A stretch of 64,000 nt of DNA from an uncultured Eubacteriales bacterium (lineage in GTDB: Bacteria; Bacillota; Clostridia; Oscillospirales; CAG-272): NCBI GenBank assembly GCA_934433485.1, contig CAKRZR010000008.1, forward strand, positions 23,342 to 87,341, given 5' to 3'. The position numbers and the translations under genes were made by a program. Below, in pieces: positions 1-55,734 of this stretch. Numbering within the stretch: the stretch's first letter is position 1; each line of letters begins with the position of its first letter. Under the pieces are notes generated by a model. That model saw only the letters and a program-made list of their open reading frames with translations, was not told the DNA's origin and ran no database searches.

Positions 1-1076
1 TGTCCGCGAAGCTGCGGATCCAAACCGTCGCCGCCGGCGGTACGGACGTTTCCTGCAAACGGAGCGGAGAACACGCGGATTCCGTTGTTCTGCGGCACGA
101 GACTATCCAGAACGTACATTTGAGCACGATGCGGCACACGGCGACGGCGGAACAGACGGTGCGAGAACGCGCGGGTGTCCGGGTCGCGGGCGCGTCGGGG
201 AATCTCTGCGTACAGGACGGCAAAATGACGCCAAACGGACTGCGCGTGGTCGGCGAAGCGTCGGTGCTGCTGCTGGCGGTCGGAGACGATGGCGCGCCGT
301 ATCCAATCCGCAGCCGCTGTGCCATTGAGGAGACGATCCCGCAAAGGACGGACGGTGAGAACGTAGGGATCACGGCGTTTGCGCATCCGGCGGCGATCAC
401 CGTGGACTGCGGCGACGATGGGACGATCACGTGGCACATGGAGTACGATCTCCACGTAATGGCGGCGAAAACCGGTGAGACCGAGGCGGACATCGACGGC
501 TACAGCACCGCGTCCGGCGAGGAATGCGCCACGAAAACCCTGTCCGCGCTGTATCCGTGCGGCGTGGTGTGCGGACGCGTGACGCTGACCGGGGATAAGG
601 AATCGACCGCGGCGGGGGAATTTGTGTACGGCTTTGGCAGAGGACAGATCGAGCGCGTGGAATGCGCCGGCGGCAGACTCGTTTGCACCGGTACGGCGAA
701 CGTGACCGTCTTTCTGCGCGGCGAGGAATGGACCGTGGAGGAATGCGCGCTGCCCCTGCGGTTTGAAACGGGCGTGCCCGCGACAGAATCCGGGGAACCG
801 ATATCCGCCATGCACGTGACCATCTGCGACGTGAGCTGCCGGTCGGACAACGGAGCCCTGCACGTCACCGCCGAAGCCGCCATAGACGGCGTGGTCTGCC
901 TGGAAGCGGAGAAAACGGTGCTCGAATCCCTGACCACCACCGCTCCTCTACCGTCCAAAAAGCCGCGCGTCACCATCTGCGTTCCGGACGGGAGCGAAAC
1001 GGAATGGGACGTACGCAAATCCCACCGCGTGGAAGAGGTGACGGAGACGGCAGGACGGTACGTGATCGTGGAGTAA
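1..1076 (+). CDS. hypothetical protein, 5' end outside the window (beta-rich; possibly DUF3794-like, unconfirmed)
   Basis: The frame of ORF 120..1076 stays open back to nt 3, so the TTG at 120 is probably internal. Stop is TAA at 1074-1076. Codon usage is GC3-rich like the neighbours. Function is not recognisable. Confidence 0.5.
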   Translation, partial: SAKLRIQTVAAGGTDVSCKRSGEHADSVVLRHETIQNVHLSTMRHTATAEQTVRERAGVRVAGASGNLCVQDGKMTPNGLRVVGEASVLLLAVGDDGAPYPIRSRCAIEETIPQRTDGENVGITAFAHPAAITVDCGDDGTITWHMEYDLHVMAAKTGETEADIDGYSTASGEECATKTLSALYPCGVVCGRVTLTGDKESTAAGEFVYGFGRGQIERVECAGGRLVCTGTANVTVFLRGEEWTVEECALPLRFETGVPATESGEPISAMHVTICDVSCRSDNGALHVTAEAAIDGVVCLEAEKTVLESLTTTAPLPSKKPRVTICVPDGSETEWDVRKSHRVEEVTETAGRYVIVE

Positions 1077-1236
1077 AGAGCCCACGTCAATCTTTTGTCC
1101 GACTCCCACAAAGAGAGCTCCTTGCACGGAATACAGGGAATGCCGTATTCGATAAAAATATCCGCTTCCCCCATTGACAGCCCTGCCGGAATCCGGTATA
1201 CTGTAGAAAAAGCAACCGATGCGGAGGAAAACGAAT

Positions 1237-1764
1237 ATGAAAAATCCACATCCCATTCTGTGGTGGTGCATCGCGGCGGTTTGTCTGCTCTGCCTTTGCG
1301 TCGGGATCGGCTGCCTCGTCATACGCAGCGCAGGAACACCGCTTTCCTTTTCCATGAACGTTTTTTCCGAGGACGGCGTGCACGGACATTTGTCCGGGGA
1401 GATCATGGTGATCGACAACGGCATTTTCCCGGTGCAATATACAGGAAAGCTCACCTGGAACGGCGTACCATATGTGGACATCGACACGCGTTATCCGACG
1501 CACAAACGAAATATCGGCGAATGGATCCGGTATTGCGTTTCTCAAATTCATGCACGGCGTCAGGGGAGTGCTTCCGGCACCTTTCTTCCAGCAAACGCAT
1601 CGGGACTGGACGGCATTTTGTATCTGCAAATCCTCTTCTGTGACGAGGACAGCATGCCATACGTCTGCTTTTTCGTTGACGATGCCGTCTATTTTGGTCC
1701 GTCCGACAATCGGGAAACGAATGGGGAAATCAAGGAGCTGGTGCATACGGAAAGCCAGAATTGA
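1237..1764 (+). CDS. membrane-anchored hypothetical protein
   Basis: GGAGGA at 1223-1228 lies 8 nt before ATG 1237. N-terminal hydrophobic helix ILWWCIAAVCLLCLCVGIGCLVI. No recognisable family. Confidence 0.6.
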   Translation: MKNPHPILWWCIAAVCLLCLCVGIGCLVIRSAGTPLSFSMNVFSEDGVHGHLSGEIMVIDNGIFPVQYTGKLTWNGVPYVDIDTRYPTHKRNIGEWIRYCVSQIHARRQGSASGTFLPANASGLDGILYLQILFCDEDSMPYVCFFVDDAVYFGPSDNRETNGEIKELVHTESQN

Positions 1765-1846: not shown

Positions 1847-3343
1847 TCAGTCGCCGATATATGCCTTTGTAAATTTTTCTATCTCCGTCACGATCTTCTT
1901 CTGATAGGATTCATAAGAAGAGACGACACTCTTTTTCTTTGTTGTGATCAGATTCGTCAGCACATAGGACGGCCATGTACCAATGTCATAGATATCGCCA
2001 AGATCATAGATACGGTTCGCAAAGATGAGATCCACCATGGCGTCGGAATCGGAATCGCGCGTCGCCTTTCCCTTGAGTGTAGTTTCATAATACGCAGGTG
2101 TTACCGTATACAGCGATTCCGCAGACAACGCTTCGATCAGGATGCCGGTGCGTTCTATATCCTGGACGGAAATCGGAATACCCAATAACGCCGTGGTGTG
2201 CCGGCTCACGAGACTTGCGTATTGTTCCTGTGCCTCATCGTACTTGGGGATCGGCAGAATGCCAAACGGTGCATCCATATCGCGGAGCGCAAGCACATCG
2301 TCAAAACGGCTCCAGAAAAATAGTCCATGACCGTTTAAAAACAGCTCGCGGAACGGTGTGTCATCCACAGGCTCGGCGTCCTGACTGCCGCGGTGGTGGT
2401 CGTAGATGGACGTTTCATCGCTCATCATGTCCTGTACCTTTTGCAGGATCTCGATATTATAGCCCTGCTTGAAGGAATCGGACAACGTATTGTCCTCGTT
2501 TTTCGAAATAAACGTACCTCCTGCGCCAAAATAGATACAGTAACCGGCGTCGCGTTTGCTCAGGAATCCCCAGAGATCCTCCAGGGTCATTTTGCCGTCA
2601 CCGTCGAGATCCGTCGTGACATTCTCGTAAACCGCTTTCATCCGATCCATCGTCCACGCGCCCTCGGATACAATCGCGTAGAGATCTTCGATCCCGTGAT
2701 CCTTCGCGATGTCCTTGTTGAAAAGGATCGCGGAGGTTGCGTTCTTATCCTCTACGGAAATTGCCGCGGACGCCATGCGCAGAGTTTCGCCGACAGACAA
2801 CGCTTCCACACTGTTCTGATCCCACCACGGCATAGAAAGCTCCAGATACGGTACGTCATACAGGTTGTAGAGCAGTCCATCTGTCACCATCGCCGTTGAC
2901 TGTGTCAGCACCTGATACGCGATATCATACGTATCATCCCCCGACTGCACCATTTTTTTGACCATCGGATTCACATCCGCGTATTCCAGATGATACTGAA
3001 TGTTATAGGTGTCCGCAATCAATGCGTTTCGGTTATAAACAGCGTCGTTCAGAGCGTCTCCGTTCAGTTCCTCTACGCAGAAATCGTTGACAAGGCGGGA
3101 TTTCCAGTCGTCGCTGATTTTCCAGTGTACGGCGGAAAATGTATAGCCATCATAATCCTGCACCGGCAGATCGGGCGTCAGCCGTTGTGTCTCCGTTTCT
3201 GTCTCTGCCACTGTTTCCGTGTCCGTCGCGGCAACTGTCTGCGCTTGATTCTCCACAGTCTTTTCTCCGCAGCCCGTGAAGCCCGGCGAAAGCATCAAAA
3301 GTACCAGTGCCCAAATGAGGAAGCGTTTGCGTGTGTTCTTCAT
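1847..3343 (-). CDS. ABC-type extracellular solute-binding lipoprotein (LplA-like), paralog 1 of 6
   Basis: Lipobox LSPGFTGC follows a basic N-terminus (start MKNTRKRF at 3343). Shares DLDGDGK, FGILPIPKYDEAQ and YYETTLKGKATRD motifs with five other ORFs in the window. Confidence 0.85.
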   Translation of the reverse strand: MKNTRKRFLIWALVLLMLSPGFTGCGEKTVENQAQTVAATDTETVAETETETQRLTPDLPVQDYDGYTFSAVHWKISDDWKSRLVNDFCVEELNGDALNDAVYNRNALIADTYNIQYHLEYADVNPMVKKMVQSGDDTYDIAYQVLTQSTAMVTDGLLYNLYDVPYLELSMPWWDQNSVEALSVGETLRMASAAISVEDKNATSAILFNKDIAKDHGIEDLYAIVSEGAWTMDRMKAVYENVTTDLDGDGKMTLEDLWGFLSKRDAGYCIYFGAGGTFISKNEDNTLSDSFKQGYNIEILQKVQDMMSDETSIYDHHRGSQDAEPVDDTPFRELFLNGHGLFFWSRFDDVLALRDMDAPFGILPIPKYDEAQEQYASLVSRHTTALLGIPISVQDIERTGILIEALSAESLYTVTPAYYETTLKGKATRDSDSDAMVDLIFANRIYDLGDIYDIGTWPSYVLTNLITTKKKSVVSSYESYQKKIVTEIEKFTKAYIGD

Positions 3344-3527
3344 ATGTTTCCTATTCCTTTCTCTGTCGGCGGCATCCATGTATGGCACTGCCGTTTTCTA
3401 TAGTATACCACATATAGCGCATATCTGCAAGCTGTTTTTGTATGATTTATATAGTTATTGTTGTAGTTATTGCGCAAAAAAAACACCGTTTCTGCTTTTC
3501 CCAGCAGAATCCGGTGCTTTTTCCGTA

Positions 3528-4307
3528 TCATTTTGTCAGAATCGAGAAGCCCAGTACCACGATGCCGAGGATCACCAGGATCACGCCGGTCGCGCGGTTT
3601 AAGGTCTTGGGCGCCGCCCTGTTCGCAATTTTCGCCGCGATCCGGGCAAACAGTAGCGTGAATACTATGCACAGGATAAGCGGGAACCACTCCGGCGCGC
3701 CGCCGATGGCAAAGTGCGACAGAGATCCCGTCAGCGCCGTGAATGTCATGATGAACACACTCGTCCCCACCGCCGTTTTCAGGTCGTACCGCAGCACGCT
3801 CGTCAGCAAAAGCAGCATCATCATACCGCCGCCCGCGCCGACAAAGCCGCAGATGAACCCCACAACCGCTCCGCAGACGATGGATTTCACCACACGGGAC
3901 CGCGCCGATCCCGCGGAAGCAGCCTCCCGCGTCGTCATCACCGGGCGCACTATGAACTTGATCCCGAGAAACAGCGTCATGACAACGGAGAAATTCCCCA
4001 TCGTAACCGGCGGCACCAGACTTGATATGTAACTGCTCACCACCGTGAAGACAAGCACCGTGACCATCATCACGATGCCGCCGCGAATATCTAAATTTTT
4101 GTTTTTCCCGTACGTGTACGCCGAAACCGCGCTCGCCAACACATCCGACGCCAGAGCGATCCCGACCGCCATGTACGGATCCATCCCGAGAAACGTCACC
4201 AGCATCGGCGTGATCACCGCAGCCGCACTCATCCCGGCAAACCCGGTACCCAGCCCCGCGCCAAGCCCGGCAAACAGACAAACAAGCGTTGTGATAAGAT
4301 ATTGCAT
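3528..4307 (-). CDS. TauE/SafE family sulfite/anion exporter (membrane protein)
   Basis: 259-aa polytopic protein with Gly-rich helices (GLGAGLGTGFAGMSAAAVITPML, VGAGGGMMMLLLL) typical of TauE/SafE. AAAGGA RBS before ATG 4307. Confidence 0.8.
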   Translation of the reverse strand: MQYLITTLVCLFAGLGAGLGTGFAGMSAAAVITPMLVTFLGMDPYMAVGIALASDVLASAVSAYTYGKNKNLDIRGGIVMMVTVLVFTVVSSYISSLVPPVTMGNFSVVMTLFLGIKFIVRPVMTTREAASAGSARSRVVKSIVCGAVVGFICGFVGAGGGMMMLLLLTSVLRYDLKTAVGTSVFIMTFTALTGSLSHFAIGGAPEWFPLILCIVFTLLFARIAAKIANRAAPKTLNRATGVILVILGIVVLGFSILTK

Positions 4308-4627
4308 GAAAATTCCTTTCTGAAACGAGATTTGTCAAGGTTTTTTTGTGAAAAAAGCAAAGTTTATCAATCAATACCATAATTCGTTGAGGCACAAGAG
4401 GTTTATCCGTTTGTACCTCTTGTCTGCCGATCAGCAAAAGGTGGGAAAAACCGTCAAGAGTGCATAGCATTCATCTTGACCCTTGATGGCTTTTCTTGAT
4501 TTTGCTACCCAAGGATTTGCTGCATATTCTCTTTCGAAATGGTTGAATTGTTCACATTTTTATGCTACAATTTTATTATTATTATCCAGAGAGTGAAAAA
4601 CTTGAACTTGGCTAAAGAGGAAATACT

Positions 4628-5077
4628 ATGAAAAAACCATATACAATTATGTTTGCCGTGGTATGTGTATTATGTGTATTTAGTTTTTTGGGATGTGAAA
4701 AGATACCAAATAGCACAAAATCTGAGACAAGTAATAGAACTATTATCGGCTATATAAATGAATTTCGCAATGGAACAGTATCGTTTGATGAAATCGAATG
4801 GGTAACTGTGCCTAGTGAACGTGCAACAGAGTTAGGCATTGCAGATGCCCCAAACGGATTTTACATCCATAATAAAGAAAGTGTTACAGCAGAGTACGAT
4901 ATCGCGGATAATTGCGTTATTTGTATTTTGGATTGGGAGAATAATTTTGCAGCAAAACAAATAGAACTGGTCAACTTTATTGATATACATGAACAGAGAG
5001 GTGGCGTCTTAATTCCATATACGCTTACTATTGAAAATGGTAAAGTAATTAACATTGAAGAACACTATATTCCCTAA
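4628..5077 (+). CDS. small lipoprotein of unknown function, in a low-GC island
   Basis: Signal peptide plus lipobox (VFSFLGCEK). AGAGGA RBS upstream of the ATG. AT-rich codon usage unlike the flanking genes. Confidence 0.6.
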   Translation: MKKPYTIMFAVVCVLCVFSFLGCEKIPNSTKSETSNRTIIGYINEFRNGTVSFDEIEWVTVPSERATELGIADAPNGFYIHNKESVTAEYDIADNCVICILDWENNFAAKQIELVNFIDIHEQRGGVLIPYTLTIENGKVINIEEHYIP

Positions 5078-5633
5078 ATGTATTAGTGGGTCAAGGACAG
5101 ACCTATTCTAAGTTGTCGGATTGCTCCCTTTGAAAATGAGTATGACTAAAATGCCGGCATATAAAAATCCGTCACCGTTTTTCTTTGCCGTCCACATCTT
5201 TCCTCGTAGAGCGTATGGCTGCTAACGGCAGTACCACTGCCCGTATATGGGTGGTGAGTAAGTGCACCCTTAGATAATCACACTAAGGGATTTGGACTAC
5301 GCCGAAGACGCTTTTCTCCAAACTCCGTAACGCTCCAGTGGCTCGAAACAGGACAGGCAGGGCAAACACATTGCCCACGCAGTTTTAGCCTTAAAATATC
5401 CTTGTTGCACAAGGCTTTCAACGGTCGAAAAGGTTACTTTCTCTTTCGGCTTGTAAAAGCATAAACACGCTTTCGTTTTCCATTGCCGAGAGCGTGTTTT
5501 TCGTTTATAATGCCCGTATCGTTCCTTTCTCATAACTGCTTTTCAATTCACCACAAATGAGCCGCAGTCATATGTATTAGGTTGCAAAACCCTCTTTTAC
5601 ATATTAACTCTTGGAATGGGAAATCGCAAAACT

Positions 5634-5790
5634 CCGCAATGGACTTGCACAAACCATATCCATCCCTTCCATTTCATAAAAGTTTTGCGGAGCTGGGAGA
5701 AATCGAAGATTTCTCCTGAAGAATGCTCTCGCATTCTTCCATTTTCCAAAAGCCGCGTTCCCCCCTCGTTCGCCTCCCGAGCGAGCGCAC
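5634..5790 (-). repeat. modular intergenic repeat, copy 1 (core, box, two hairpin cassettes, G-rich flank)
   Basis: Contains GGACTTGCACAAAC (core, reverse orientation) and ATAAAAGTTTTGCGG (box, reverse). Hairpins GGAGAAATC-GAA-GATTTCTCC and GAAGAATGC-TCTC-GCATTCTTC, then GCCGCGTTCCCCCCTCG. Ends about 10 bp before the dnaB stop. Confidence 0.85.
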
Positions 5791-10346: not shown

Positions 10347-11375
10347 TCACTCGCTCTTTTCCAGCTTCTTCTGCTTTATCACGTGCCACGCGCCGTAGAT
10401 GGCGAAAACAAAACAGACGGTGGCGGTTCCCAAGACTGCCATGCTCCATACGAGCAGCAGCATGATGAGGGTGACCGTTCTCGCGCGGTGTCCCTTGCCG
10501 ATGATGTACGCGTCCGCCAAACGATCACGAATGCGCATGGCGGCTTCGCGGAGTCCCACGTACACGGACGGCGGACACAGCACAAGGAGGCAGTTGGTCA
10601 GCACCGTATAGATGAGGGGATTCCGGCGGTATGAGGTCGCCAGCAGCAGAAAGGACAGCACCATGACAAGCGCGCCAAAATACCGCGGTGTGGTGATTCC
10701 CTCGTCCGCCTCCGGGAGAAAATACCGCTCGCATTCCATGAGCCGGAACAGCAGACGGCACAGCCAATCGCCAAGGCACGCGACGCCCTCCGCGATCATA
10801 AGCCACAACGCGGGCAGCGCCAGGAGGAGCGATCGTGCTGTCTCCGCCGCGTATGCCGCAAAGAAGGAGCTGCGCGCCAGCAGCTGTTCAAGCGCGTTCA
10901 GAATCTGTGCCGGCAAACGCGCGACGGGAACGCTGTGCCAGACATAGCCGGCAAACAAAATCCCGGCGGCAAGCAGGCAGAGCGCCACCGCGGTAGTCAA
11001 ATGGAGCACCCGGCGGAACCGGGATTCCCGCAGCAGGACGGACGACGCGTATACGTACGCGCAGACATAGACGCTCAGGCACAGCACAACGGCGGTAAGA
11101 AGTCCAGCGACAGGCAGCACGGCGCACAAAGAAAGCACCGAGACCGCCATCGACGCCGCACGCCGCCACAATACGATCAGGGTCGCATAGGCGGTGACGG
11201 CAAGGGCAAACAGCGGCAGCGCAGCCAAGAACGCGGGGATCGCATGCACGCCCGCACCGTCCCGCAAAATCGCCGCCGCGGCTGTTGTTGCACCGACGAT
11301 CACCGCGAAAATCAGGACAACGAGCGGCAGCGTCAGTGTAGGGAGATCATCCCGTTTCCGAAATACCCGCAGCAC
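10347..11375 (-). CDS. YybS-like polytopic membrane protein (DUF2232 family, by synteny)
   Basis: 342-aa, highly hydrophobic, multi-pass. Lies immediately upstream of gdpP as yybS does in Bacillus. Assignment rests on synteny and topology only. Confidence 0.65.
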   Translation of the reverse strand: MLRVFRKRDDLPTLTLPLVVLIFAVIVGATTAAAAILRDGAGVHAIPAFLAALPLFALAVTAYATLIVLWRRAASMAVSVLSLCAVLPVAGLLTAVVLCLSVYVCAYVYASSVLLRESRFRRVLHLTTAVALCLLAAGILFAGYVWHSVPVARLPAQILNALEQLLARSSFFAAYAAETARSLLLALPALWLMIAEGVACLGDWLCRLLFRLMECERYFLPEADEGITTPRYFGALVMVLSFLLLATSYRRNPLIYTVLTNCLLVLCPPSVYVGLREAAMRIRDRLADAYIIGKGHRARTVTLIMLLLVWSMAVLGTATVCFVFAIYGAWHVIKQKKLEKSE

Positions 11376-21485: not shown

Positions 21486-21561
21486 CTCTGAATCCATCGA
21501 ATTTTTGCGCCGAGAGCCTGAACAGATGGTTTGCAGCGCAAAAAGCAACCTGAAATCAGAG
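21486..21561 (+). repeat. 77-bp palindromic element R2, copy i
   Basis: CTCTGAATCCATCGAATTTTTGCGC...GCGCAAAAAGCAACCTGAAATCAGAG. Same termini and architecture as 29103-29179 and 52832-52908. Confidence 0.8.
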
Positions 21562-29102: not shown

Positions 29103-29179
29103 CTCTGAATAAATCGGGTTTTTGCGATAAAAGGCTGAAATATAAGGGCTTTTATCGCAAAAACAACCTTAAATCAGAG
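29103..29179 (+). repeat. 77-bp palindromic element R2, copy ii
   Basis: CTCTGAATAAATCGGGTTTTTGCGATAAAAGGC-TGAAATATAA-GGGCTTTTATCGCAAAAACAACCTTAAATCAGAG, between the SBP3 stop and the GH-A-like start. Confidence 0.85.
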
Positions 29180-47326: not shown

Positions 47327-48109
47327 CTATTCGTTCTGGCGGTAGGCGCGGGGAGACTGTCCGTATGCGCGTTTGAAGAGCTTGGAGAAATAGAACGGAT
47401 CCGGATAGCCTACGCTTTCCCCGATCTCACGTACGGAGAGATCCGTACAGAGGAGCAGCCGTACCGCATGGGACAGCCGGTATTCCATCAGGTAGCGCAT
47501 AGGAGGCACGCCGAATGCCTGTCGGAACTTCACAAACAGGCTCGACTCCGACTGCATCGCAAGCTGCGCCAAATGTGACGCTGTGATATCCTCCCGGTAA
47601 TGGTTTTCCAGATACTGGAGTACCGTATACATGGCGGCATTTCTTTCCGCATCCACCTGCGGCTCAGACAACGCGGCAAGAGACTCCATCATACCATACG
47701 CGGCGCTGTACTGTCCGTATACGGTCTGTGCAGCAAACACCGCGTCCATCCACTGCGACAGCCCGGCAGCCGCCTCTCCGGTGACCACCTGCGGGAACCG
47801 ATAATAGCGGTCAAAGGGAACAAGCTCGTTCAGCACAGCGTCCAGAAAAACCCAGCGCGCTGCCATCTTCCCCGTACGCAGATCCATATGGTGGACGATC
47901 GTCTGCCGCACATGGGACGGCGCGATAAAAAATCCGCCGCAGCCTGTATACGTCTCCGCGTTGTCGTTCAACCGGATCGAGTATTCCCCCTCCGTCGCCT
48001 GTACGATGGACAGATACGGCAGCATCTTCCGGTGGCAGTCTCCCTCCGCGTAATTGTCGGTAAAGCCATTGTGGATCAGGTGGCGGATCTGTACCGTTCG
48101 GATTTCCAT
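47327..48109 (-). CDS. AraC family transcriptional regulator
   Basis: C-terminal double HTH (ASHLAQLAMQSESSLFVKFRQAFGVPPMRYLMEYRLSHAVRLL...VREIGESVGYPDPFYFSKLFKRAYGQSPRAYR). Divergent from SBP paralog 4. Confidence 0.92.
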   Translation of the reverse strand: MEIRTVQIRHLIHNGFTDNYAEGDCHRKMLPYLSIVQATEGEYSIRLNDNAETYTGCGGFFIAPSHVRQTIVHHMDLRTGKMAARWVFLDAVLNELVPFDRYYRFPQVVTGEAAAGLSQWMDAVFAAQTVYGQYSAAYGMMESLAALSEPQVDAERNAAMYTVLQYLENHYREDITASHLAQLAMQSESSLFVKFRQAFGVPPMRYLMEYRLSHAVRLLLCTDLSVREIGESVGYPDPFYFSKLFKRAYGQSPRAYRQNE

Positions 48110-48170: not shown

Positions 48171-48199
48171 TAGACAGAACCTGCTGCATCCAGTATGAT
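48171..48199 (+). promoter_or_regulatory. candidate promoter of SBP paralog 4
   Basis: TAGACA (48171-48176), 17-bp spacer, TATGAT (48194-48199). Palindrome TTGTACA-TCTTTTT-TGTACAA lies just upstream. Confidence 0.45.
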
Positions 48200-48266
48200 A
48201 TTCTTATACGAAAAAATCGAATATGGACATTTGTCGCATAATACACGAGATGAAAAGGGGATTTTC

Positions 48267-49715
48267 ATGAAAAAGAAATGGATCGCACTTCTTACCGCCG
48301 CGCTGCTCCTCGCCGGCTGTCAGACAGTGCCGGACAAAACAGCGAACGACTCTGTCGGAAACGACACGGAGCCGCACACCGAAACGGAAACCGAGACGGA
48401 AACGCCGTCCGTCCTTGAAAAGATCCCACAGGCGGATTACGACGACTACACCTTCCATTATCTCACCGAAAGCTGGACGGGCACCGTCGCCGACCGGTTT
48501 TTGCGGGAATTGCAGTCGGAGGAGGTCACAGGCGAACCCATCAACGACGCCGTCTACGCGCGCAATCAATTCTTGGCGGATCGGCTGCATATCCGGATCA
48601 CGGCGCAGGATGCCGACAACGTATCGCAGTCCGTTCTTGGATCCGTCCGTTCCGGCGAGGATCTCTATCAGCTGGTCGGCGCGTATAAATTCAATACCAC
48701 CTCGCTGCTCTCCCAGCATGCCATCCGGGACTGGAACGCGCTCGACATCGATTTTGACGCGGACTGGTGGAGCCGGGAAGCCGTAAACAAACTGAGCATC
48801 TGCGGCAAGCAATATTTCATGAGCGGCAGCATCCTCATGAGCGAGATCGACGACACACTGGCAATGGCGTTCAACAAGGACATCCAGAACGAATACAAGT
48901 TAGACGACGTATACACCCTTGTGGAAAGTGGAAAATGGACCGTGGACGCGATGAAAACGATGGTGGAGCAGGTTTCAAACGACCTGAACGGCGACGGCAG
49001 GATGGAGCTTGGCGTCGATCTGCTCGGCTACGCGCAGGACAGCAATTCCATGACCACCAACTGGGCGTTCTCCCTCGATCTGCTCCATGGCGCTGTCACG
49101 GAGGAAAACACCTACGAATGGAACATAGACACGGATCGGATCCAGACCGCGCTGGAAAAGGTCAACGCGATGATGGCGCTGGCGAACACGGATCTCGGCA
49201 CAGATTACTACACGGGCCTGGACATTTTCGCCGAGGGAAAGCTGTATTTCTACTCCATTATTTTGAGTGCCCTCGAAATCGTACGCGATATGGAGGACGA
49301 TTTCGGGATCGCGCCGTATCCGAAGCTCGACGAAGCGCAGGCACAGTATTACAACCATGTCGGCAACATGTCCCCGATCCTGTCGCTGCCCATCACGAAC
49401 ACCTCCGACGACGAACGCACTGCCGCGATCCTTACCGCCCTTGCTATCTCCTCCTACGACTACGTGCGCCCCGTCTACTTCGATTCCGTGCTGAAGGGCA
49501 AGCTCTCCCGCGATCCGCAGACCCGTGTGATGCTCGACATCGTACAGCAAAGCGCCACCTACGATCTCCCCTACGTCCTCGGTCCCTCTCTCGCCGGAAC
49601 GGTAAACGGACTGATGCAGAAAAACAGCAGTGATTTTGCTTCTGCATGGAAATCCGCCGAAAAGAGCATGACAACAAGCATCAATAAATTCCTGCAAAGC
49701 ATTACAGAGAAGTAA
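48267..49715 (+). CDS. ABC-type extracellular solute-binding lipoprotein (LplA-like), paralog 4 of 6
   Basis: MKKKWIALLTAALLLAGC lipobox. Motifs DLNGDGR, FGIAPYPKLDEAQ, VYFDSVLKGKLSRD. Confidence 0.9.
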   Translation: MKKKWIALLTAALLLAGCQTVPDKTANDSVGNDTEPHTETETETETPSVLEKIPQADYDDYTFHYLTESWTGTVADRFLRELQSEEVTGEPINDAVYARNQFLADRLHIRITAQDADNVSQSVLGSVRSGEDLYQLVGAYKFNTTSLLSQHAIRDWNALDIDFDADWWSREAVNKLSICGKQYFMSGSILMSEIDDTLAMAFNKDIQNEYKLDDVYTLVESGKWTVDAMKTMVEQVSNDLNGDGRMELGVDLLGYAQDSNSMTTNWAFSLDLLHGAVTEENTYEWNIDTDRIQTALEKVNAMMALANTDLGTDYYTGLDIFAEGKLYFYSIILSALEIVRDMEDDFGIAPYPKLDEAQAQYYNHVGNMSPILSLPITNTSDDERTAAILTALAISSYDYVRPVYFDSVLKGKLSRDPQTRVMLDIVQQSATYDLPYVLGPSLAGTVNGLMQKNSSDFASAWKSAEKSMTTSINKFLQSITEK

Positions 49716-49809: not shown

Positions 49810-52353
49810 TCACGCCGTAACGATCCCGGCGGCTTCGCGGAATTCGGGGAGACGGGCGGCTTCCTCGCGCATCTTATATTTGAGGATCTTCCCGGCAGCG
49901 TTCATCGGGAACTCGTTCACGAACGTCACGTAGCGCGGCACCTTATGCTTTGCCATATGCGTCATGACGTACTCCTTGATCTCGTCCGCGGTGACCGTTT
50001 CACCCGGCTTCGGGATAACGCACGCCATGATCTCCTCGCCGTACTGCTTATCCGGCACGCCGATGACCTGCACGTCCTGCACCTTCGGATGCGTATAGAT
50101 GAAGTCCTCGATCTCCTTCGGGTAGATGTTCTCGCCGCCGCGGATGATCATGTCCTTGATCCGTCCGGTGATCTTATAATACCCGTTCGGCAGACGGCGC
50201 GCGAGGTCGCCTGTATGGAGCCAGCCGTCCCGGTCGATGGCAGCCGCGGTCGCCTGCGGCATTTTGTAGTAGCCCTTCATGATGTTGTAGCCGCGCGCCA
50301 CAAATTCGCCGTCGCAGTTGTCGGGCAGATCCGCGCCCGTTTCGGGATCGACGATCTTGCACTCTACGCCGAAGATCGCGCCGCCGACGGTATTCACGCG
50401 GTCCTCGATGGAGTCCGTGGTCTTGGACATCGTGGTCGCGGGGGACGCCTCGGTCTGCCCGTAGGTGATGCAGATCTCGGACATATGCATTTTCTCGATG
50501 ACCTCCCGCATGACCTGGATCGGACACGGGGAGCCTGCCATGATCCCGGTGCGCATATGGGAGAAGTCCGTTTTCGCGAAATCCTTATGGCCGAGCATGG
50601 CGATGAACATCGTCGGCACGCCGTGGAACGCGGTGATTTTCTCACGGGTGATGCAGTCCAGTCCCTTTGACGGCGAAAAGGCGGGAATCGGGGACATGGT
50701 GGTGCCGTGGGTGACGGACGCCGTCATTGCCAGCACCATACCGAAGCAGTGGAACATCGGCACCTGGATCATCATGCGGTCTGCGGTGGACAGATCCATG
50801 CAGTCGCCGATCGCCTTGCCGTTGTTGACGACGTTGTAGTGCGTGAGCATGACGCCCTTGGGGAATCCCGTGGTGCCGGAGGTATACTGCATATTGCACA
50901 CGTCGTGCTTATTGATCATGGCGGCGCGGCGGTACACGGCCTCGACGGGCGTTCTTTCGGCATAGGACAGCGCGTCGTCCCAGGTCAGGCAGCCGGGTAC
51001 GCGGGATTCGACGGTGATGACGTTGCGCAGGAAGGGGAGGCGGCGGCTGTGGAGGGGCTTGCCGGTCTCCAGCGTGGCAAGCTCGGGACACAGCTCCTGT
51101 ATGATACCGATATAATCGGAGTCCTTATAGCCGTCGATCATGACGAGGGTGTGGGTATCGGACTGGCGGAGGAGGTATTCCGCCTCGTGGATCTTGTACG
51201 CGGTATTGACGGTGACAAGGACCGCGCCGATCTTGACCGCTGCCCAGAACGTGATATACCACGCGGGGACGTTGGTCGCCCAGACCGCCACGTGGTCGCC
51301 CTGCTTGACGCCGAGGGAGATCAGCGCTCTGGCGAAGGTATCGACGTCGTCGCGGAACTGGGGATAGGTGCGGGTATAGTCGAGGGTGGTGTAGCGGAAG
51401 GCGTACTGATCGGGGAATTCCTCGCAGATCCTGTCGAGCACCTGCGGGAAGGTGAGATCGATGAGCTTTTCCTTTTCCCAGATATACTTACCGTCTCCGC
51501 GGCGCGAGGTCTGGAGCCGTTCGGGCTGATCCCCGTCGTCGAGGAACTGGCTCATATAGTGCGCGAACTGCGGGAATACGATGCCCGCGTCGGACAGCTC
51601 CGGCGAATACTGCTTGAGCCACTCGAGGGAGATATAGCCCTCGTAATTGACGCTGCGCAGCGCGTTCATGAACTGCTCGATGGGAAGATCGCCCTCGCCC
51701 AGGATGCGGTAATGGACGCCGGAGCCGTCCTTCACGGAGTCCTTGATGTGGATATGCTTGATATACGCGCCGAGATTGCGGATGGTGGTTTCGGGATCCT
51801 CGCTGTGGTAGCGGTAGGGATGGTGGAGGTCCCACAGGGCGGCCACGTTGTCGCTGCCGATGGACGCAAGCGTATCCGCGAGCCGCCTGGTATCGCAGTA
51901 GACGCCGTTTGTCTCGATGAGGAGGGTGACGCCGGCGTCCTCCGCGTCCCGTGCGAGGATCCGCATGGCGGAGATCACGTTCTCGTCGTCGAAATCCGTG
52001 GTCGGCTCCGCGGTGGGATCACCCAGCACACGGATATACGGGGTTCCGAGTGCCGCCGCGACGCGGATATACTCCCGCAGCTCCGCGATGTTCTCCGCGT
52101 GGTGCGCCGGATCGCGCAGCGAACAGCCGGAGGACAGGCAGCAGATCTCCAGATGCAGCCTTTGCAGCTCCGCGCGGGTCCTTGCGAGATTCTCGGTCCG
52201 GAACGGGCTTGCGTGTACGGTAAAATTGCTCTCGGCAATGTCGCCGCCCAGTCCGCGCATCTCGATTCCGCGGAAACCAAAGTCCTTCGCCATCGAATAA
52301 ATATCCGCCCACGAAAAATCCGGGCAGCCCAGGGTGGAAAACGCCAGCTTCAT
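49810..52353 (-). CDS. fusion protein: N-terminal xylose-isomerase-like TIM barrel (sugar phosphate isomerase/epimerase family) plus C-terminal AMP-dependent acyl-CoA synthetase/ligase
   Basis: N-terminus MKLAFSTLGCPDF...IEMRG...LLIETNG...ISLEW (AP_endonuc_2-like barrel, about 285 aa). C-terminal ~550 aa carries YTSGTTGFPKGV, GYGQTE-like ITYGQTEAS, TGDLA and IIRGGENIYPKEIE motifs of ANL ligases. One uninterrupted frame. GGAG RBS before ATG 52353. Confidence 0.9.
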   Translation of the reverse strand: MKLAFSTLGCPDFSWADIYSMAKDFGFRGIEMRGLGGDIAESNFTVHASPFRTENLARTRAELQRLHLEICCLSSGCSLRDPAHHAENIAELREYIRVAAALGTPYIRVLGDPTAEPTTDFDDENVISAMRILARDAEDAGVTLLIETNGVYCDTRRLADTLASIGSDNVAALWDLHHPYRYHSEDPETTIRNLGAYIKHIHIKDSVKDGSGVHYRILGEGDLPIEQFMNALRSVNYEGYISLEWLKQYSPELSDAGIVFPQFAHYMSQFLDDGDQPERLQTSRRGDGKYIWEKEKLIDLTFPQVLDRICEEFPDQYAFRYTTLDYTRTYPQFRDDVDTFARALISLGVKQGDHVAVWATNVPAWYITFWAAVKIGAVLVTVNTAYKIHEAEYLLRQSDTHTLVMIDGYKDSDYIGIIQELCPELATLETGKPLHSRRLPFLRNVITVESRVPGCLTWDDALSYAERTPVEAVYRRAAMINKHDVCNMQYTSGTTGFPKGVMLTHYNVVNNGKAIGDCMDLSTADRMMIQVPMFHCFGMVLAMTASVTHGTTMSPIPAFSPSKGLDCITREKITAFHGVPTMFIAMLGHKDFAKTDFSHMRTGIMAGSPCPIQVMREVIEKMHMSEICITYGQTEASPATTMSKTTDSIEDRVNTVGGAIFGVECKIVDPETGADLPDNCDGEFVARGYNIMKGYYKMPQATAAAIDRDGWLHTGDLARRLPNGYYKITGRIKDMIIRGGENIYPKEIEDFIYTHPKVQDVQVIGVPDKQYGEEIMACVIPKPGETVTADEIKEYVMTHMAKHKVPRYVTFVNEFPMNAAGKILKYKMREEAARLPEFREAAGIVTA

Positions 52354-52387
52354 ATATATGCACTCCTTTTGCATGATTATTTATATG

Positions 52388-52510
52388 GTGGGAGACGAGG
52401 GAACGGGGGGAGACGCGGTCAGAACCTTTTTTTCGAAAAAGGTTCCGACACCTCCAAAAAACTTTATGAAAAAAGGGGGTGGAATTTTTGTTTGTGCAAT
52501 TCCGGGGGGC
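52388..52510 (+). repeat. modular intergenic repeat, copy 10 (between the T-box terminator and the fusion gene)
   Basis: GGGAGACGAGGGAACGGGGGGAGACGCGG flank. Hairpin GGTCAGAACCTTTTTTT-CG-AAAAAAGGTTCCGACA. CCAAAAAACTTTATGAAAAAAGGGGG box. Short core GTTTGTGCAATTCCGG. Confidence 0.85.
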
Positions 52511-52519
52511 TTTTTCAAC

Positions 52520-52815
52520 AAAAAAGCCCGCGTCTTCTGAAACGGATTTTTCTCCGTCAGAGACGAGGGCGAACGATGCTGCTCCCGCGGTACCACTCTG
52601 TTTGACGCGCGACGCGTCCTCTCATCGGCACAGTCATGCCTTTCCCGGATAACGGTGGGGGGGCCGTCCGTGCCTACTGGAAACGCGGTCCTCCGGGGTG
52701 GGGGAGTGCGCTTTGTTCGGGCGGCTGCTGAGGGGTGAGTGCCATGATGTCCGCCGCTGTCTCGCACCAACGACAGCTCTCTGCGGGTCGGACGGATCAT
52801 AGGGTTTCCCCTGTC
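52520..52815 (-). promoter_or_regulatory. T-box riboswitch leader with intrinsic terminator (specifier probably Leu CUC)
   Basis: Read on the minus strand. AG bulge AGAGAG (52777-52782). Distal loop GGUGCGAG (52761-52768). F-box CCGUUA (52650-52655). T-box AGAGUGGUACCGCGGGAG (52582-52600). Terminator hairpin 52526-52570 followed by UUUUUU (52520-52525). Candidate specifier loop GGCACUCA (52736-52743) lies between GGGG/CCCC and AUGAU/AUCAU helices. Confidence 0.8.
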
Positions 52816-52831
52816 AATGCATTTAGGAGGT

Positions 52832-52908
52832 CTCTGATTTAAGGTTATTTTTGCAATAAAAGCCCTTATATTTTAGCCTTTTATCGCAAAAATCCGATTG
52901 ATTCAGAG
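52832..52908 (-). repeat. 77-bp palindromic element R2, copy iii (inside the 5' leader, between promoter and T-box)
   Basis: Minus-strand reading: CTCTGAATCAATCGGATTTTTGCGATAAAAGGC-TAAAATATAA-GGGCTTTTATTGCAAAAATAACCTTAAATCAGAG. Confidence 0.85.
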
Positions 52909-52925
52909 GTTCCTTAGATATGGGT

Positions 52926-52954
52926 AGTATACCACAAAGGGGCGTGGTTGTCAA
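52926..52954 (-). promoter_or_regulatory. consensus sigma-A promoter driving the R2 / T-box leader / fusion-gene transcript
   Basis: Minus strand: TTGACA (52954-52949), 17-bp spacer, extended -10 TGgTATACT (52934-52926). Confidence 0.7.
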
Positions 52955-53033
52955 TAGGGCAAGATGTATAAAGATGTACCGGGGTCATGCCGGGATCCTT
53001 TGGCGGATGGATGAATAGATATACGCAGAGGGA

Positions 53034-53900
53034 TCATTCCTCGCCGCGATAGTATTTGCGGTAGGCTCTGGGGGTGGTTCCGGTATATTTCTGGAACACG
53101 GCGGAGAAATAGCTGCTGTCGCAGAAGGAGAGGGAATGCGCGATCTCGGTCACGGAGAGGGTGGTATCGCGGAGATATTCGGCGGCGCGGCGGATGCGGG
53201 TCTCGCAGATATAGCTATGGAGCGTTTTCCCGGTCGCCTGCCGGACGAGACGATTGATATGGTTGGGGTGATAATGGAAGCGGTCTGCCAGCTCCTCTCT
53301 GGTCAGCGGCTCACCGCAGTGGGCATTGATATACGCAAGGAGGTCGCCAATGGGGGAATCCGCGTCTGGGACAGCCATTTTCGCGCGATAGAGGGAGACT
53401 ATGATCTCGGCAAGGAGGGCGCGGGTCCGGACCGTGTAGCCGATGCGCCGTTCCTCATACTCCTTCCACAGGGTCATGGCGGTGGCGAGAAGCGCGGGCT
53501 GGCTGTCCACGACGAAGAGGGAATCGAACACGTCCGTATCGGAGAAGCGCACCGGTGTCCCCATATACCGTTCGTCATACGCGTCGCCGACGAGAATATC
53601 GGTATAGGGCGCGTCCTCATAGCGGTAGGGGAAGAAATCGAAGCAGATCTGGCGGACGATGAATTTGGAGCGGAAGACGGTGGTATAGGGGTGATGGGGC
53701 GGCATATAGAGCGCACCGCCCGCGCCCAGGGTATATTCCACGCCGTCCACGAAAAAGGCAGCTTCCCCGGAGAGGGCGACCAGGATCCGTGCGGTATACG
53801 ACTGCTTGCGCTGCTGGTTCAGGGGGTCCTGCGGCATGCAGGTCGCCGTAAAAATACCCTTGATATCCGGATAAATATCCGCGAATCGCGCATCTCCCAT
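53034..53900 (-). CDS. AraC family transcriptional regulator
   Basis: GGGAGG RBS 8 nt before ATG 53900. Cupin-like N-terminal half. C-terminal HTH pair (REELADRFHYHPNHINRLVRQATGKTLHSYICETRIRRAAEYL...VTEIAHSLSFCDSSYFSAVFQKYTGTTPRAYR). Confidence 0.92.
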   Translation of the reverse strand: MGDARFADIYPDIKGIFTATCMPQDPLNQQRKQSYTARILVALSGEAAFFVDGVEYTLGAGGALYMPPHHPYTTVFRSKFIVRQICFDFFPYRYEDAPYTDILVGDAYDERYMGTPVRFSDTDVFDSLFVVDSQPALLATAMTLWKEYEERRIGYTVRTRALLAEIIVSLYRAKMAVPDADSPIGDLLAYINAHCGEPLTREELADRFHYHPNHINRLVRQATGKTLHSYICETRIRRAAEYLRDTTLSVTEIAHSLSFCDSSYFSAVFQKYTGTTPRAYRKYYRGEE

Positions 53901-54279
53901 CCCATTTGCCTCCCTTGCTCTGTATGCCACAGGACACGCTCCGGACCGCCTCAGATTTCGCGAAAAAAAGCGCCGACACATGGTTTTTTCGCGCAGACTC
54001 CGCCGTAGACTGTGTTTTCCTGAATGTTCGTTTTTCAGGGTTTTTTCGCCCGAATTTTATAGTGTACGGACCGATTCACGCGTATACTATAGATACTGAT
54101 ATTTGTGCATATTCCACCGGATGGCGCGCGAACCTTCCATCAGATACAGTATATCACACAGCCCCGCCTTTGGCAAGAGCAGACGCGCATTTTTCCCGGA
54201 TTTCTTTCGATGATGACAATCGTCACTGAAAAGATGTGCGTTTTTTCGTGTGGAAATGCAGTGAAAGGAACTGTGTATT

Positions 54280-55734
54280 ATGAAAAACCGTCAGACCACG
54301 CTCTCCCTGCTCCTCGCCCTTCTTCTCACATCGCCGCTTGTCTCCTGTTCCGCGGGAAACGAGGTTCCGCCCTCCGCGGACAATGCCCAGACGACCATGG
54401 AGCAGACCGTGGAGGAGACCGAAACGGAGCCTGTCTACACCCTGCCCGACTATGACTGCGGCGGCGGCGATCTCATGGTCCTCACGAAGATGGAGGGAAC
54501 CGAATCCGGTCGCTGGACGACGCACGACGTATACGCGGAGGAGCTGACCGGAGAAGCCATCAACGACGCCGTATACAACCGCAACATCGCGCTGCAGGAC
54601 AAGTACCATTGCGTGATCCGGCAGGAGCGGATGAAGATGGACGCCATGCCCTCCGGGATCGCGAAATTCATCCTGGCGGGGGACGCGACCTACGACATCA
54701 TCATGCCGAACATCACCTCCGCCGCCGCGTTGTCGAAGGACGGGAACCTCTACGAGCTGCAGGATCGCCTGGAGCTGACACGCCCCTGGTGGAACGCGCA
54801 GTTTACCAAGGATACGGAGATCGGCGGGAAGAATTATTTCGTAAACGGCGACATCAGCGAAACCTTCATGCGCGCCACCTACGCGATATTCTTCAACAAG
54901 GGGATCATCGCGGACAACAATCTGGAAAATCCGTACAGGCTGGTCGAGGACGGCAGATGGACGATGGACAAGGCGCGTGAGATGGGCGCGGTCTTCGCCT
55001 CCGACGTGGACGGCAACGGCAAGCGGGACGAGACGGTGGACCATTTCGGCTTCTTCGTGCTGTCGAATCAGGTCGAGGCGCTGTACACCTCCTCCGGCGA
55101 GAAGATCATCCGGCTCAGCGAGGACGGCAGCTTCTCGTTCCACGCGGGCGACGAGAGAAGTCTGCGCGTGCTGGAGTCCATCTACAGCCTGTACGCGGAC
55201 AAGGACGTCGTGTGCAACGGCAAGACGGTGGAATCCGGGGAAACCATGTTCTCCGAGGACCGGCTGCTCTTCCTCATGGGCACGATGAACAACGTGGTCT
55301 CGATGCGCGAGATGGAGACGGATTTCGGGATCCTGCCCACACCGAAGGCGGACGAAGCGCAGGCGGAATACTACTCTTACATGAACACATGGGCGTCGAG
55401 CTGCGCCGCGATCCCGGTATCCTGCGCGGACATCGAGAAGTCGTCGATCCTCATGGAGGCGCTGGGCTGTTACTCCCGTGAATACTACACGCCCGCGTAT
55501 TATGAGATCACCCTGAAGGGCAAATCCTCCCGCGATACGGAATCGCTCGGGATGCTCGATCTGATCTACGAGCGGCGCACGGCGGATCTCGGCAACCTGT
55601 TCAACATCGGGGGCGTTCTCTCCGGCGCGACCGACCTTGTGAACCGCGGCAAGAATTCCTTCACCTCCCTCATCGAATCGAAGGCCGCCGCCGTCGAAAA
55701 GGAGCTTGCGGAGCTGAACGATATGCTCGGATAA
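54280..55734 (+). CDS. ABC-type extracellular solute-binding lipoprotein (LplA-like), paralog 5 of 6
   Basis: MKNRQTTLSLLLALLLTSPLVSC lipobox. Motifs DVDGNGK, FGILPTPKADEAQ, YYEITLKGKSSRD. Confidence 0.9.
   Translation: MKNRQTTLSLLLALLLTSPLVSCSAGNEVPPSADNAQTTMEQTVEETETEPVYTLPDYDCGGGDLMVLTKMEGTESGRWTTHDVYAEELTGEAINDAVYNRNIALQDKYHCVIRQERMKMDAMPSGIAKFILAGDATYDIIMPNITSAAALSKDGNLYELQDRLELTRPWWNAQFTKDTEIGGKNYFVNGDISETFMRATYAIFFNKGIIADNNLENPYRLVEDGRWTMDKAREMGAVFASDVDGNGKRDETVDHFGFFVLSNQVEALYTSSGEKIIRLSEDGSFSFHAGDERSLRVLESIYSLYADKDVVCNGKTVESGETMFSEDRLLFLMGTMNNVVSMREMETDFGILPTPKADEAQAEYYSYMNTWASSCAAIPVSCADIEKSSILMEALGCYSREYYTPAYYEITLKGKSSRDTESLGMLDLIYERRTADLGNLFNIGGVLSGATDLVNRGKNSFTSLIESKAAAVEKELAELNDMLG

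Follow-up and report, generated by a model that had tools for sequence, protein, structure and literature searches.

A Leucine T-Box Leader Upstream of a TIM-Barrel/Acyl-CoA-Ligase Fusion Gene in an Uncultured Clostridia Bacterium

Introduction

Why would a T-box that reads leucine (Leu) stand in front of a gene for an acyl-coenzyme A (CoA) ligase? The question is raised by the minus strand of a 64-kb stretch of DNA from an uncultured Eubacteriales bacterium (contig CAKRZR010000008.1), which we call the window. All unprefixed coordinates are window positions, and L-numbers denote the other loci that were fetched. A T-box leader in the window precedes the gene for a fusion of a xylose-isomerase-like TIM barrel with an ANL-superfamily ligase. 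The survey of Wels 2008 showed that T-box-regulated genes are tRNA ligases (62%), biosynthesis genes (18%), transport genes (12%) and genes of unknown or unrelated function (8%) (PMC2494555). No T-box on an acyl-CoA ligase is reported in the gene lists of that survey, in PMC3766115 and its supplements, in TBDB (PMC7778990) or in full-text searches, a coverage that excludes Vitreschak 2008 and Gutierrez-Preciado 2009. The remark of an initial annotation of this DNA, that no ANL ligase is found among the known T-box regulons, is consistent with these sources.

In this study, we believe with moderate confidence that the leader is a tRNA-Leu T-box attenuating a monocistronic fusion gene, and that the enzyme most likely activates isovalerate, which would then be carboxylated to leucine. 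The RNA itself is an ordinary T-box of a known family. What is new is the class of target gene and the functional prediction drawn from it.

Results

The T-Box Leader and Its Specifier

The region was searched with the Rfam T-box model RF00230 (cmsearch). A Rfam scan at the gathering threshold, which is 93 bits for this family, gave zero matches in the whole window, and the T-box was recovered with an E-value threshold instead. The match is full length, with an E-value of 1.2e-15 locally and 1.1e-13 over the whole window, and it is the only match at E <= 0.01 in the 64 kb. Because its score lies below 93 bits, default annotation overlooks this T-box. The nhmmer profile built from orthologous leaders matches the window leader at E 7e-51. 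From 52954 down to 52353, the minus strand carries a promoter, a palindrome, the T-box leader, a terminator, a modular repeat, a ribosome-binding site and the ATG, all of them within a few bases of where the initial annotation had placed them. The parts of the leader are as follows.

52558..52826, minus strand: T-box leader, RF00230 match over model positions 1-219, 72.3 bits
52723..52826, minus strand: Stem I with AG bulge, distal loop and specifier loop (RF00230 alignment, RNAalifold, pair counts)
52782-52777, minus strand: AG bulge AGAGAG, aligned to AGAGA of the model
52768-52761, minus strand: distal loop GGUGCGAG of Stem I
52737..52739, minus strand: specifier codon CUC (Leu) at the RF00230 codon position, followed by A 52736
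52735-52732, minus strand: CCCC, the helix closing the specifier loop, directly after A 52736
52650..52655, minus strand: F-box CCGUUA at the end of the Stem IIA/B region, aligned to CGUUA of the model
52599-52582, minus strand: T-box sequence AGAGUGGUACCGCGGGAG, including UGGU at 52595-52592
52558..52600, minus strand: antiterminator, from the minimum-energy fold of 52600-52555, with a 7-nucleotide (nt) bulge
52520..52570, minus strand: intrinsic terminator, a long interrupted hairpin at 52570-52526 followed by U6 at 52525-52520 (predicted fold)

In the alignment to the model, the distal loop UUGGUGCGAG falls on UUGGUGaaA, and the T-box sequence in the RF00230 alignment table reads AGAGUGGUACCGCG. 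The specifier loop reads GCA-CUC-A and then CCCC, with CUC-A at the codon-plus-purine positions of the model. CUC is the usual Leu specifier in T-boxes. The 7-nt bulge of the predicted antiterminator is UGGUACC, so the UGGU bulge that had been claimed is found, and it would pair with the tRNA 3' end ACCA. According to established tRNA identity rules, the discriminator of tRNA-Leu is A73 and that of the Gly tRNA is U73. The UGGU bulge fits A73, and therefore matches tRNA-Leu and excludes a Gly reading. The antiterminator and terminator folds are mutually exclusive: the strand GCCCUCGUCUCUG is common to both, and the 5' arm of the terminator is the 3' arm of the antiterminator. The terminator fold has about 19 pairs, with -32.1 kcal/mol for 52600-52510. 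A simple terminator scan misses this hairpin because it is long and interrupted.

Conservation of the Leader and of the Leu Codon

The leader survey covered the best 80 species-level ortholog loci out of at least 597 relatives of the fusion gene. The exact motif TGGTACCRCG was found within 900 nt upstream in 36 of the 80 loci. A leader profile search raised the number of loci with a T-box-like leader directly upstream to 41, each from a different species, of which 37 are full length, including the motif variant L004. One of these leaders, that of the fusion gene in L075, reaches 130.7 bits with RF00230 and thus exceeds the gathering score. Together with the window they make 42 leaders, and UGGU is the bulge in all 36 exact-motif leaders and in the window. 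Predicted T-box control of the fusion gene is common, not obligatory.

All 42 leaders keep a Leu specifier, as the initial annotation would lead one to expect: the triplet is CUC in 39 and CUG in 2, and in 1 it is readable either way, whereas the three bases before the codon differ between species. In the Stem I alignment of 40 leaders, RNAalifold recovers the basal, specifier-closing and distal helices. Compensatory changes were seen in 13 of 13 counted pairs, among them 4 of 4 in the specifier-closing helix and 6 of 6 in the distal helix. The proportion of paired cells was 97.7%, compared with 76.3% in shuffles (0 of 500 shuffles reached the observed value), and it fell to 34-55% when the partners were slid by 1-3 columns. 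An arrangement found in 41 of 80 loci, with this degree of covariation, goes far past what chance would produce. Because the Leu codon is kept in the 42 leaders and Stem I covaries, we consider the T-box identity and the Leu assignment secure at the level of sequence comparison.

The specifier loop holds several overlapping triplets, and GGCACUCA might also be read as GGC (Gly), GCA (Ala), CAC (His), ACU (Thr) or UCA (Ser); TBDB notes alternative frames for some T-boxes (PMC7778990). However, only CUC/CUG is kept over the 42 leaders, and the bases of the other triplets vary. In the covariance model, CUC occupies the codon position, one base separates it from the closing helix, which covaries, and Gly is already excluded by the bulge. 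We reject these other specifiers as practically untenable.

The other four of the 41 leaders, L027:4400-4747, L029:5641-6001, L031:5637-6001 and L043:5536-6001, keep Stem I (with CUC-A) through Stem III. They are without the canonical T-box 14-mer and antiterminator, and have another 3' hairpin with a U-run instead. They may be decayed T-boxes or carry a variant 3' domain.

Linkage of the Leader to the Fusion Gene

The leader is framed by a promoter and a translation start, and two dispersed repeats lie between them.

52926..52954, minus strand: promoter TTGACA, 17-nt spacer, extended -10 TGgTATACT; 11/12 consensus positions plus the upstream TG
52832..52908, minus strand: AT-rich palindromic dispersed repeat of ~77 nt ("R2 palindrome"), between promoter and Stem I
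52388..52510, minus strand: copy of a modular repeat, between terminator and ribosome-binding site
52351..52368, minus strand: ribosome-binding site AAGGAG (52368-52363) and start codon ATG (52353-52351)

The promoter, which bears out the earlier claim base for base, is the sole sigma-70-like site predicted in 52200-53200. In the orthologous leaders, a TTGACA-17-TATAAT arrangement likewise lies just upstream of Stem I. At the other end, orthologs align from residue 1 at the ATG. The fusion gene is monocistronic, with its neighbours on the opposite strand, either convergent or divergent. The most common neighbouring gene is present in at most 6 of the 80 loci; no neighbour is conserved beyond that number, and therefore the leader travels with the fusion gene alone. 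The distance from the T-box motif to the ATG is 80-170 nt in most species versus about 240 nt in the window, because the modular repeat was inserted there.

On the minus strand, the stretch from the T-box terminator to the ATG holds no predicted promoter or terminator. We also considered whether the inserted repeat might supply a promoter that bypasses the T-box, or a further terminator, and none is predicted on that strand. The claim that the leader controls the fusion gene is thus upheld by the pairing conserved across species, the monocistronic gene and the lack of a predicted intervening promoter or terminator. An orphan leader left by rearrangement is unlikely, because the pairing is conserved, the gene is monocistronic and the insert is without a promoter or U-tailed hairpin; the conserved pairing, together with the intact terminator, led us to rule it out.

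The palindrome folds at -20 kcal/mol (z = -3.96). Its second copy in the window, at 29103-29179, is 93.5% identical, and a partial copy lies at 21486-21561. In the sister species L003, whose fusion protein is 96% identical, palindrome copies are found at 5664-5755, after the T-box terminator, and at 11186-11266. Because the element stands before Stem I in the window but after the terminator in L003, the comparison suggests a small mobile or REP/MITE-like element. MicroRNA and small-RNA matches on the palindrome (E 0.17 or worse) were dismissed as hairpin artefacts.

The modular repeat is intergenic, ~120-150 nt long and present in at least 11 copies in the window, so the copy at 52388-52510 is one of a family, as had been stated. 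This copy consists of the core CGGAATTGCACAAAC, then CATAAAGTTTTTTGGAGG, a variable hairpin and GACCGCGTCTCCCC. The general order is (TTGGTGAGCAxT), CGGAMTTGCACAAAC, ~20 nt, ATAAAAGTTTTTGC..GGCTGG, 1-2 hairpins and AAAGCCGCGTTCCCC; the ends are conserved, and the 1-2 internal hairpins are variable in sequence. The modular repeat is absent from the leaders of other species, and so is the palindrome outside the window and sister L003. The cores lie at the following positions.

5640, 7402, 11611, 27916, 40461 and 58548, plus strand: modular repeat cores
63954, 52504, 45138, 39172 and 18951, minus strand: modular repeat cores

As for the surroundings, the locus has AraC-family regulators on both sides, at 47327-48109 and at 53034-53981. 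The open reading frames (ORFs) beside the fusion gene, 48195-49715 (plus strand, 506 amino acids, aa) and 54280-55734 (plus strand, 484 aa), have no Pfam or NCBIfam match, and both are called as genes on the source contig.

Ile and Val T-Boxes on Related Ligases

The L075 locus led to a parallel. Within the 800-nt region upstream of its fusion gene lies a second, divergent T-box (105.6 bits; 5266-5537, minus strand), which precedes a gene of 774 aa with HTH, cupin and ANL domains (5198..2874, minus strand), followed by MaoC and GNAT genes (2908..2435 and 2422..1958, minus strand). For such HTH_3 + Cupin_2 + ANL ligases, the nearest PDB entry is 3ETC (E 1e-199) and the nearest NCBIfam family is MbcS. 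The ligases of L075 and L070 match MbcS (NF047394) best, at 444-448 bits, below its 850-bit cut-off.

Gut and rumen metagenome contigs were then scanned with an alignment of MbcS-like ligases, and 80 loci (L085-L164) were returned. These contain 73 T-box matches, of which 68 are full length, and nearly all of the matches lie directly upstream of an HTH-cupin-ANL gene; such genes are preceded by T-boxes in about 58-65 of the 80 loci. In the register NNN-N-CUYC-YGAG, 38 specifiers are AUC (Ile) and 26 are GUA (Val); once de-replicated at 90% identity, the leaders come down to 29 distinct ones for Ile and 12 for Val. In six loci (L125, L127, L131, L132, L139 and L141), an Ile unit is followed by a Val unit. 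The Rfam alignment of L125 places AUC and GUA at the codon position, with 100.8 bits for its T-box 1, above the gathering score, and 89.7 bits for its T-box 2, below it. The Leu leaders of L050, L051, L056, L065 and L069 are similar to the Ile/Val leaders over their full length, and because of this we believe that the sequences suggest a duplication with a change of specifier between the Leu and the Ile/Val leaders.

Stand-alone MbcS-like ANL genes were also found on the same strand 31-55 nt upstream of the fusion gene, at L064:4279-5961, L070:4296-5969 and L071:3616-5280, where Pfam was run. An ORF of matching size and position lies at L072:3903-5570, from which we infer an MbcS-like ANL gene there as well. 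These stand-alone genes have no T-box and no HTH-cupin domain, and the arrangement in the four loci looks like a two-ligase operon. The two ligase genes thus adjoin each other: those of L075 diverge, and those of L064, L070 and L071 lie in tandem. By these predictions, each of the three branched-chain amino acids has a ligase under T-box control, with that of Leu from a different ligase family.

Two other T-boxes appeared among these loci. In the related locus L160, a CUC T-box (1057-1379, minus strand) stands before an HMGL-like (LeuA-type) gene starting at 1037 (minus strand), which is the canonical case. This unit is divergent from an Ile-T-box HTH-cupin-ANL unit, and branched-chain amino-acid-related genes cluster there. 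The T-box at L091:764-1096 (minus strand) lies upstream of a DAHP synthase gene. The register of the Leu/Ile/Val leaders reads CUC (Leu) in it, and UUC (Phe), the codon expected for DAHP synthase, lies 2 nt upstream of CUC, so this specifier register is ambiguous.

The Fusion Protein

The gene product and its domains are given below.

49810..52353, minus strand: fusion protein, 847 aa, ORF from ATG 52353
51613-52290, minus strand: xylose-isomerase-like TIM barrel, aa 22-247 (Pfam PF01261, AP_endonuc_2; 114.6 bits, E 8e-33)
50266-51435, minus strand: AMP-binding, aa 307-696 (Pfam PF00501; 301 bits)
49888-50115, minus strand: AMP-binding_C, aa 747-822 (Pfam PF13193; 72 bits)

The closest relatives are also 847 aa long. 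Relatives occur in at least 597 species-representative genomes, almost all of them of uncultured gut or rumen Clostridia and including Oscillospiraceae, Ruminococcus and Christensenellaceae, and the fusion architecture is strictly conserved across these species. Among the NCBIfam families, the ANL half comes closest to PRK12583, "fatty acid CoA ligase family" (690 bits). This is below the cut-off of 832, and therefore no named ANL subfamily can be assigned; MbcS does not appear among the 25 best NCBIfam matches listed for the protein. The PDB relatives of this half are feruloyl/fatty-acyl-CoA and malonyl-CoA synthetases, as partial-domain matches. The ANL domain is predicted to be of the acyl-CoA-ligase type, not the amino-acid adenylation type.

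The TIM half weakly resembles AsbF, MJ1311, IolI, tagatose epimerase, fructoselysine 3-epimerase and hydroxypyruvate isomerase. Its best PDB profile E-value is 1e-11, and its NCBIfam scores of 40-50 bits compare with cut-offs of at least 300, so that homology in Pfam, NCBIfam and PDB gives no specific enzyme subfamily or function for it. E147, D175, H178, H202, D205 and E244 are invariant. For E147, D175, H202 and E244 this holds in 23 orthologs, and we take these four to be the metal site of the fold. Because this invariant Glu/Asp/His/Glu pattern resembles a metal site, the TIM half is probably catalytic, and it probably carries out an accessory step. The same pattern and the match to PF01261 place it beside enzymes such as AsbF (3-dehydroshikimate dehydratase, PDB 3DX5), IolI and D-tagatose 3-epimerase, although its similarity to the characterised members is weak. 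We know of no PF01261 member that is joined to an ANL ligase or linked with leucine.

These features leave room for another substrate. The Leu T-box would be real, but the enzyme would act on some other leucine-related compound, and the TIM half would be indispensable as an isomerase, epimerase or dehydratase. The enzyme might, for example, salvage a hydroxy or keto acid that derives from leucine, or a conjugate of a sugar with an amino acid, and the ANL half need not then be a simple isovalerate-CoA ligase. The six invariant residues, read as a retained metal site, imply catalysis, the fusion is never relaxed across the species above, and fructoselysine 3-epimerase, hydroxypyruvate isomerase and AsbF are among the weak relatives. 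However, no candidate pathway joins such a reaction with acyl adenylation and leucine supply, and the Ile/Val ligase parallel favours simple branched acids. We regard this substrate change as quite unlikely.

Discussion

How the leader might work is assumed here from the established T-box mechanism and from its anatomy. Transcription would begin from the promoter (52954-52926). With tRNA-Leu charged, the terminator at 52570-52520 would form and transcription would halt before the gene. When uncharged tRNA-Leu accumulates, its anticodon would pair with CUC in Stem I and its 3' end with UGGU, which would stabilise the antiterminator and let RNA polymerase pass the ~165-nt spacer into the fusion gene. 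The enzyme would convert a short branched acid with the leucine skeleton, most plausibly isovalerate, into its CoA thioester. A 2-oxoacid:ferredoxin oxidoreductase would carboxylate this acyl-CoA reductively to 4-methyl-2-oxopentanoate, which would be transaminated to leucine.

Because homology does not settle the function, the T-box is the main functional clue. By T-box logic, the fusion gene should help to restore charged tRNA-Leu. To our knowledge, the genes for the activation step of isovalerate carboxylation in the rumen have not been assigned, and MbcS is not known to be T-box controlled. The carboxylation of isovalerate to leucine was shown by labelling in ruminococci and other rumen bacteria (Allison 1962 and 1966, as cited in PMC7356843). 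The habitats and some of the host groups described there (ruminococci, rumen and gut Clostridia) match the carriers of the fusion; the pathway itself is defined in that source by isotope labelling, and we infer its link to the fusion gene. The proposal becomes stronger because Ile and Val T-boxes control MbcS-like ligases in related bacteria, yet it still goes beyond what the leaders themselves say. MbcS activates 2-methylbutyrate and isobutyrate, which have the Ile and Val skeletons, and handles isovalerate poorly (PMC10026030), and therefore a role is left for a distinct, Leu-linked enzyme. More tentatively, and with slightly less than even confidence, we speculated that gut and rumen Clostridia have three T-box/ligase modules, the Leu fusion and the Ile and Val HTH-cupin-ANL genes, each activating the matching acid for carboxylation, which together would form a so far unrecognised part of the T-box regulon. 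Starvation for one branched-chain amino acid would then cause isovalerate, 2-methylbutyrate or isobutyrate, whichever matches, to be activated and carboxylated back.

MbcS also points in another direction. Under the same Leu T-box, the enzyme might make isovaleryl-CoA as a FabH primer for iso-odd branched-chain fatty acids, and so spare leucine. The precedent is MbcS itself, a branched-acid CoA synthetase that feeds branched-chain fatty acids in Staphylococcus aureus (PMC10026030, PMC11167679), and the ligases under Ile/Val T-box control are MbcS-like. A single acyl-CoA product would serve both pathways, and the lipid-primer and leucine-supply roles are compatible, not mutually exclusive. On the other hand, the surveyed T-box regulons mainly restore aminoacyl-tRNA supply (PMC2494555, PMC3766115), and three amino-acid-specific switches fit amino-acid supply more simply. 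We therefore regard the primer role as rather unlikely and continue to favour the activation of isovalerate for leucine supply.

Several observations weigh against this preferred explanation. The enzyme is the first source of them. Homology in NCBIfam and PDB gives no substrate for the ANL domain. The TIM barrel has no role in the proposed route from isovalerate to leucine, and its relatives are sugar epimerases and isomerases and dehydroshikimate dehydratase. Neither the 80 loci nor the surroundings in the window link a 2-oxoacid:ferredoxin oxidoreductase, a transaminase or a transporter to the fusion gene, and in the window the 22 kb around it hold nothing related to branched-chain amino acids. 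Among the orthologs, 39 of 80 are without a T-box, and their upstream gaps are short. There are no tRNA genes in the window, and a scan of L001-L060 gave unrelated tRNAs, as well as tRNA-Leu(UAG) in L006, L007 and L009, and no tRNA-Leu(GAG).

The leader in the window is the second source. Its 72.3 bits fall short of the RF00230 gathering score, two repeat elements sit inside its 5' untranslated region (UTR), the GAA of the S-turn is replaced by GCA, and the K-turn at the base of Stem I has UGA on the 5' strand but UCAGC on the 3' strand, a place at which NGAGC stands in at least 90% of the 40 aligned leaders. This copy of the T-box could be weakened by the K-turn and S-turn changes. The shortfall in score can be traced to these two changes, a 31-nt insertion in Stem II and the GC-rich composition; it is due to insertions and to the degenerate K-turn and S-turn, with no domain missing.

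One might go further and read the window leader as a decaying or bypassed relic, whose tRNA sensing would have been lost through the inserted repeats and the degenerate K-turn and S-turn, with the gene expressed independently of leucine. The sub-threshold score, the C at a K-turn position that is otherwise G in nearly all leaders and the two mobile repeats would agree with this. However, the leader retains its specifier, AG bulge, distal loop, F-box, T-box sequence, antiterminator and terminator undamaged. No alternative promoter is predicted downstream of the terminator, and an intact terminator would silence the gene without antitermination. The UCAGC variant is tolerated, because it is shared by L048, which is more distant than L003; the K-turn of sister L003, whose leader is 82% identical to that of the window, is irregular too. 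We consider the relic very unlikely.

Compared with known RF00230 T-boxes, such as the Leu-specific ones of Bacillus subtilis leuS and the ilv-leu operon, the leader has the same Stem I (specifier loop, AG bulge and distal loop), F-box, T-box sequence with UGGN bulge and competing folds. It differs from them in its target, an acyl-CoA-ligase fusion in place of a synthetase, a classical biosynthesis gene or a transporter, and in that the window copy is sub-gathering and has two dispersed repeats in its 5' UTR. In the same way, the ligase shares the ANL superfamily with MbcS of S. aureus, which activates exogenous short branched-chain acids tied to branched-chain amino acids. The ANL domain of the window, however, belongs to another subfamily, outside the MbcS/ACSM/Macs clade, and shows 24-25% identity with the MbcS-like ligases from L070 and L075. 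MbcS also has neither the TIM barrel of the window fusion nor the HTH-cupin domains of the Ile and Val genes.

The specifier codon acts as a built-in functional label, which marks as leucine-related an enzyme architecture that is widespread and uncharacterised. Such leaders may well be listed without remark in automated databases, and annotation pipelines probably under-report T-box regulon members of this kind in GC-rich uncultured Clostridia, because the Rfam gathering score misses the T-box of the window. [quoted passage not shown] If it is true, T-boxes would govern not only tRNA synthetases, de novo biosynthesis and uptake but also the salvage of carbon skeletons, and the activation genes that have long been missing for the assimilation of these fatty acids, a physiology that goes back to the work of Allison in the 1960s (cited in PMC7356843), would be identified. 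This would be relevant to rumen nutrition, where "isoacid" feed supplements are given, and to cross-feeding in the gut, where fermentation yields isovalerate, isobutyrate and 2-methylbutyrate in abundance. With a three-way Leu/Ile/Val T-box-ligase system, this 60-year-old physiological pathway would become genetically testable.

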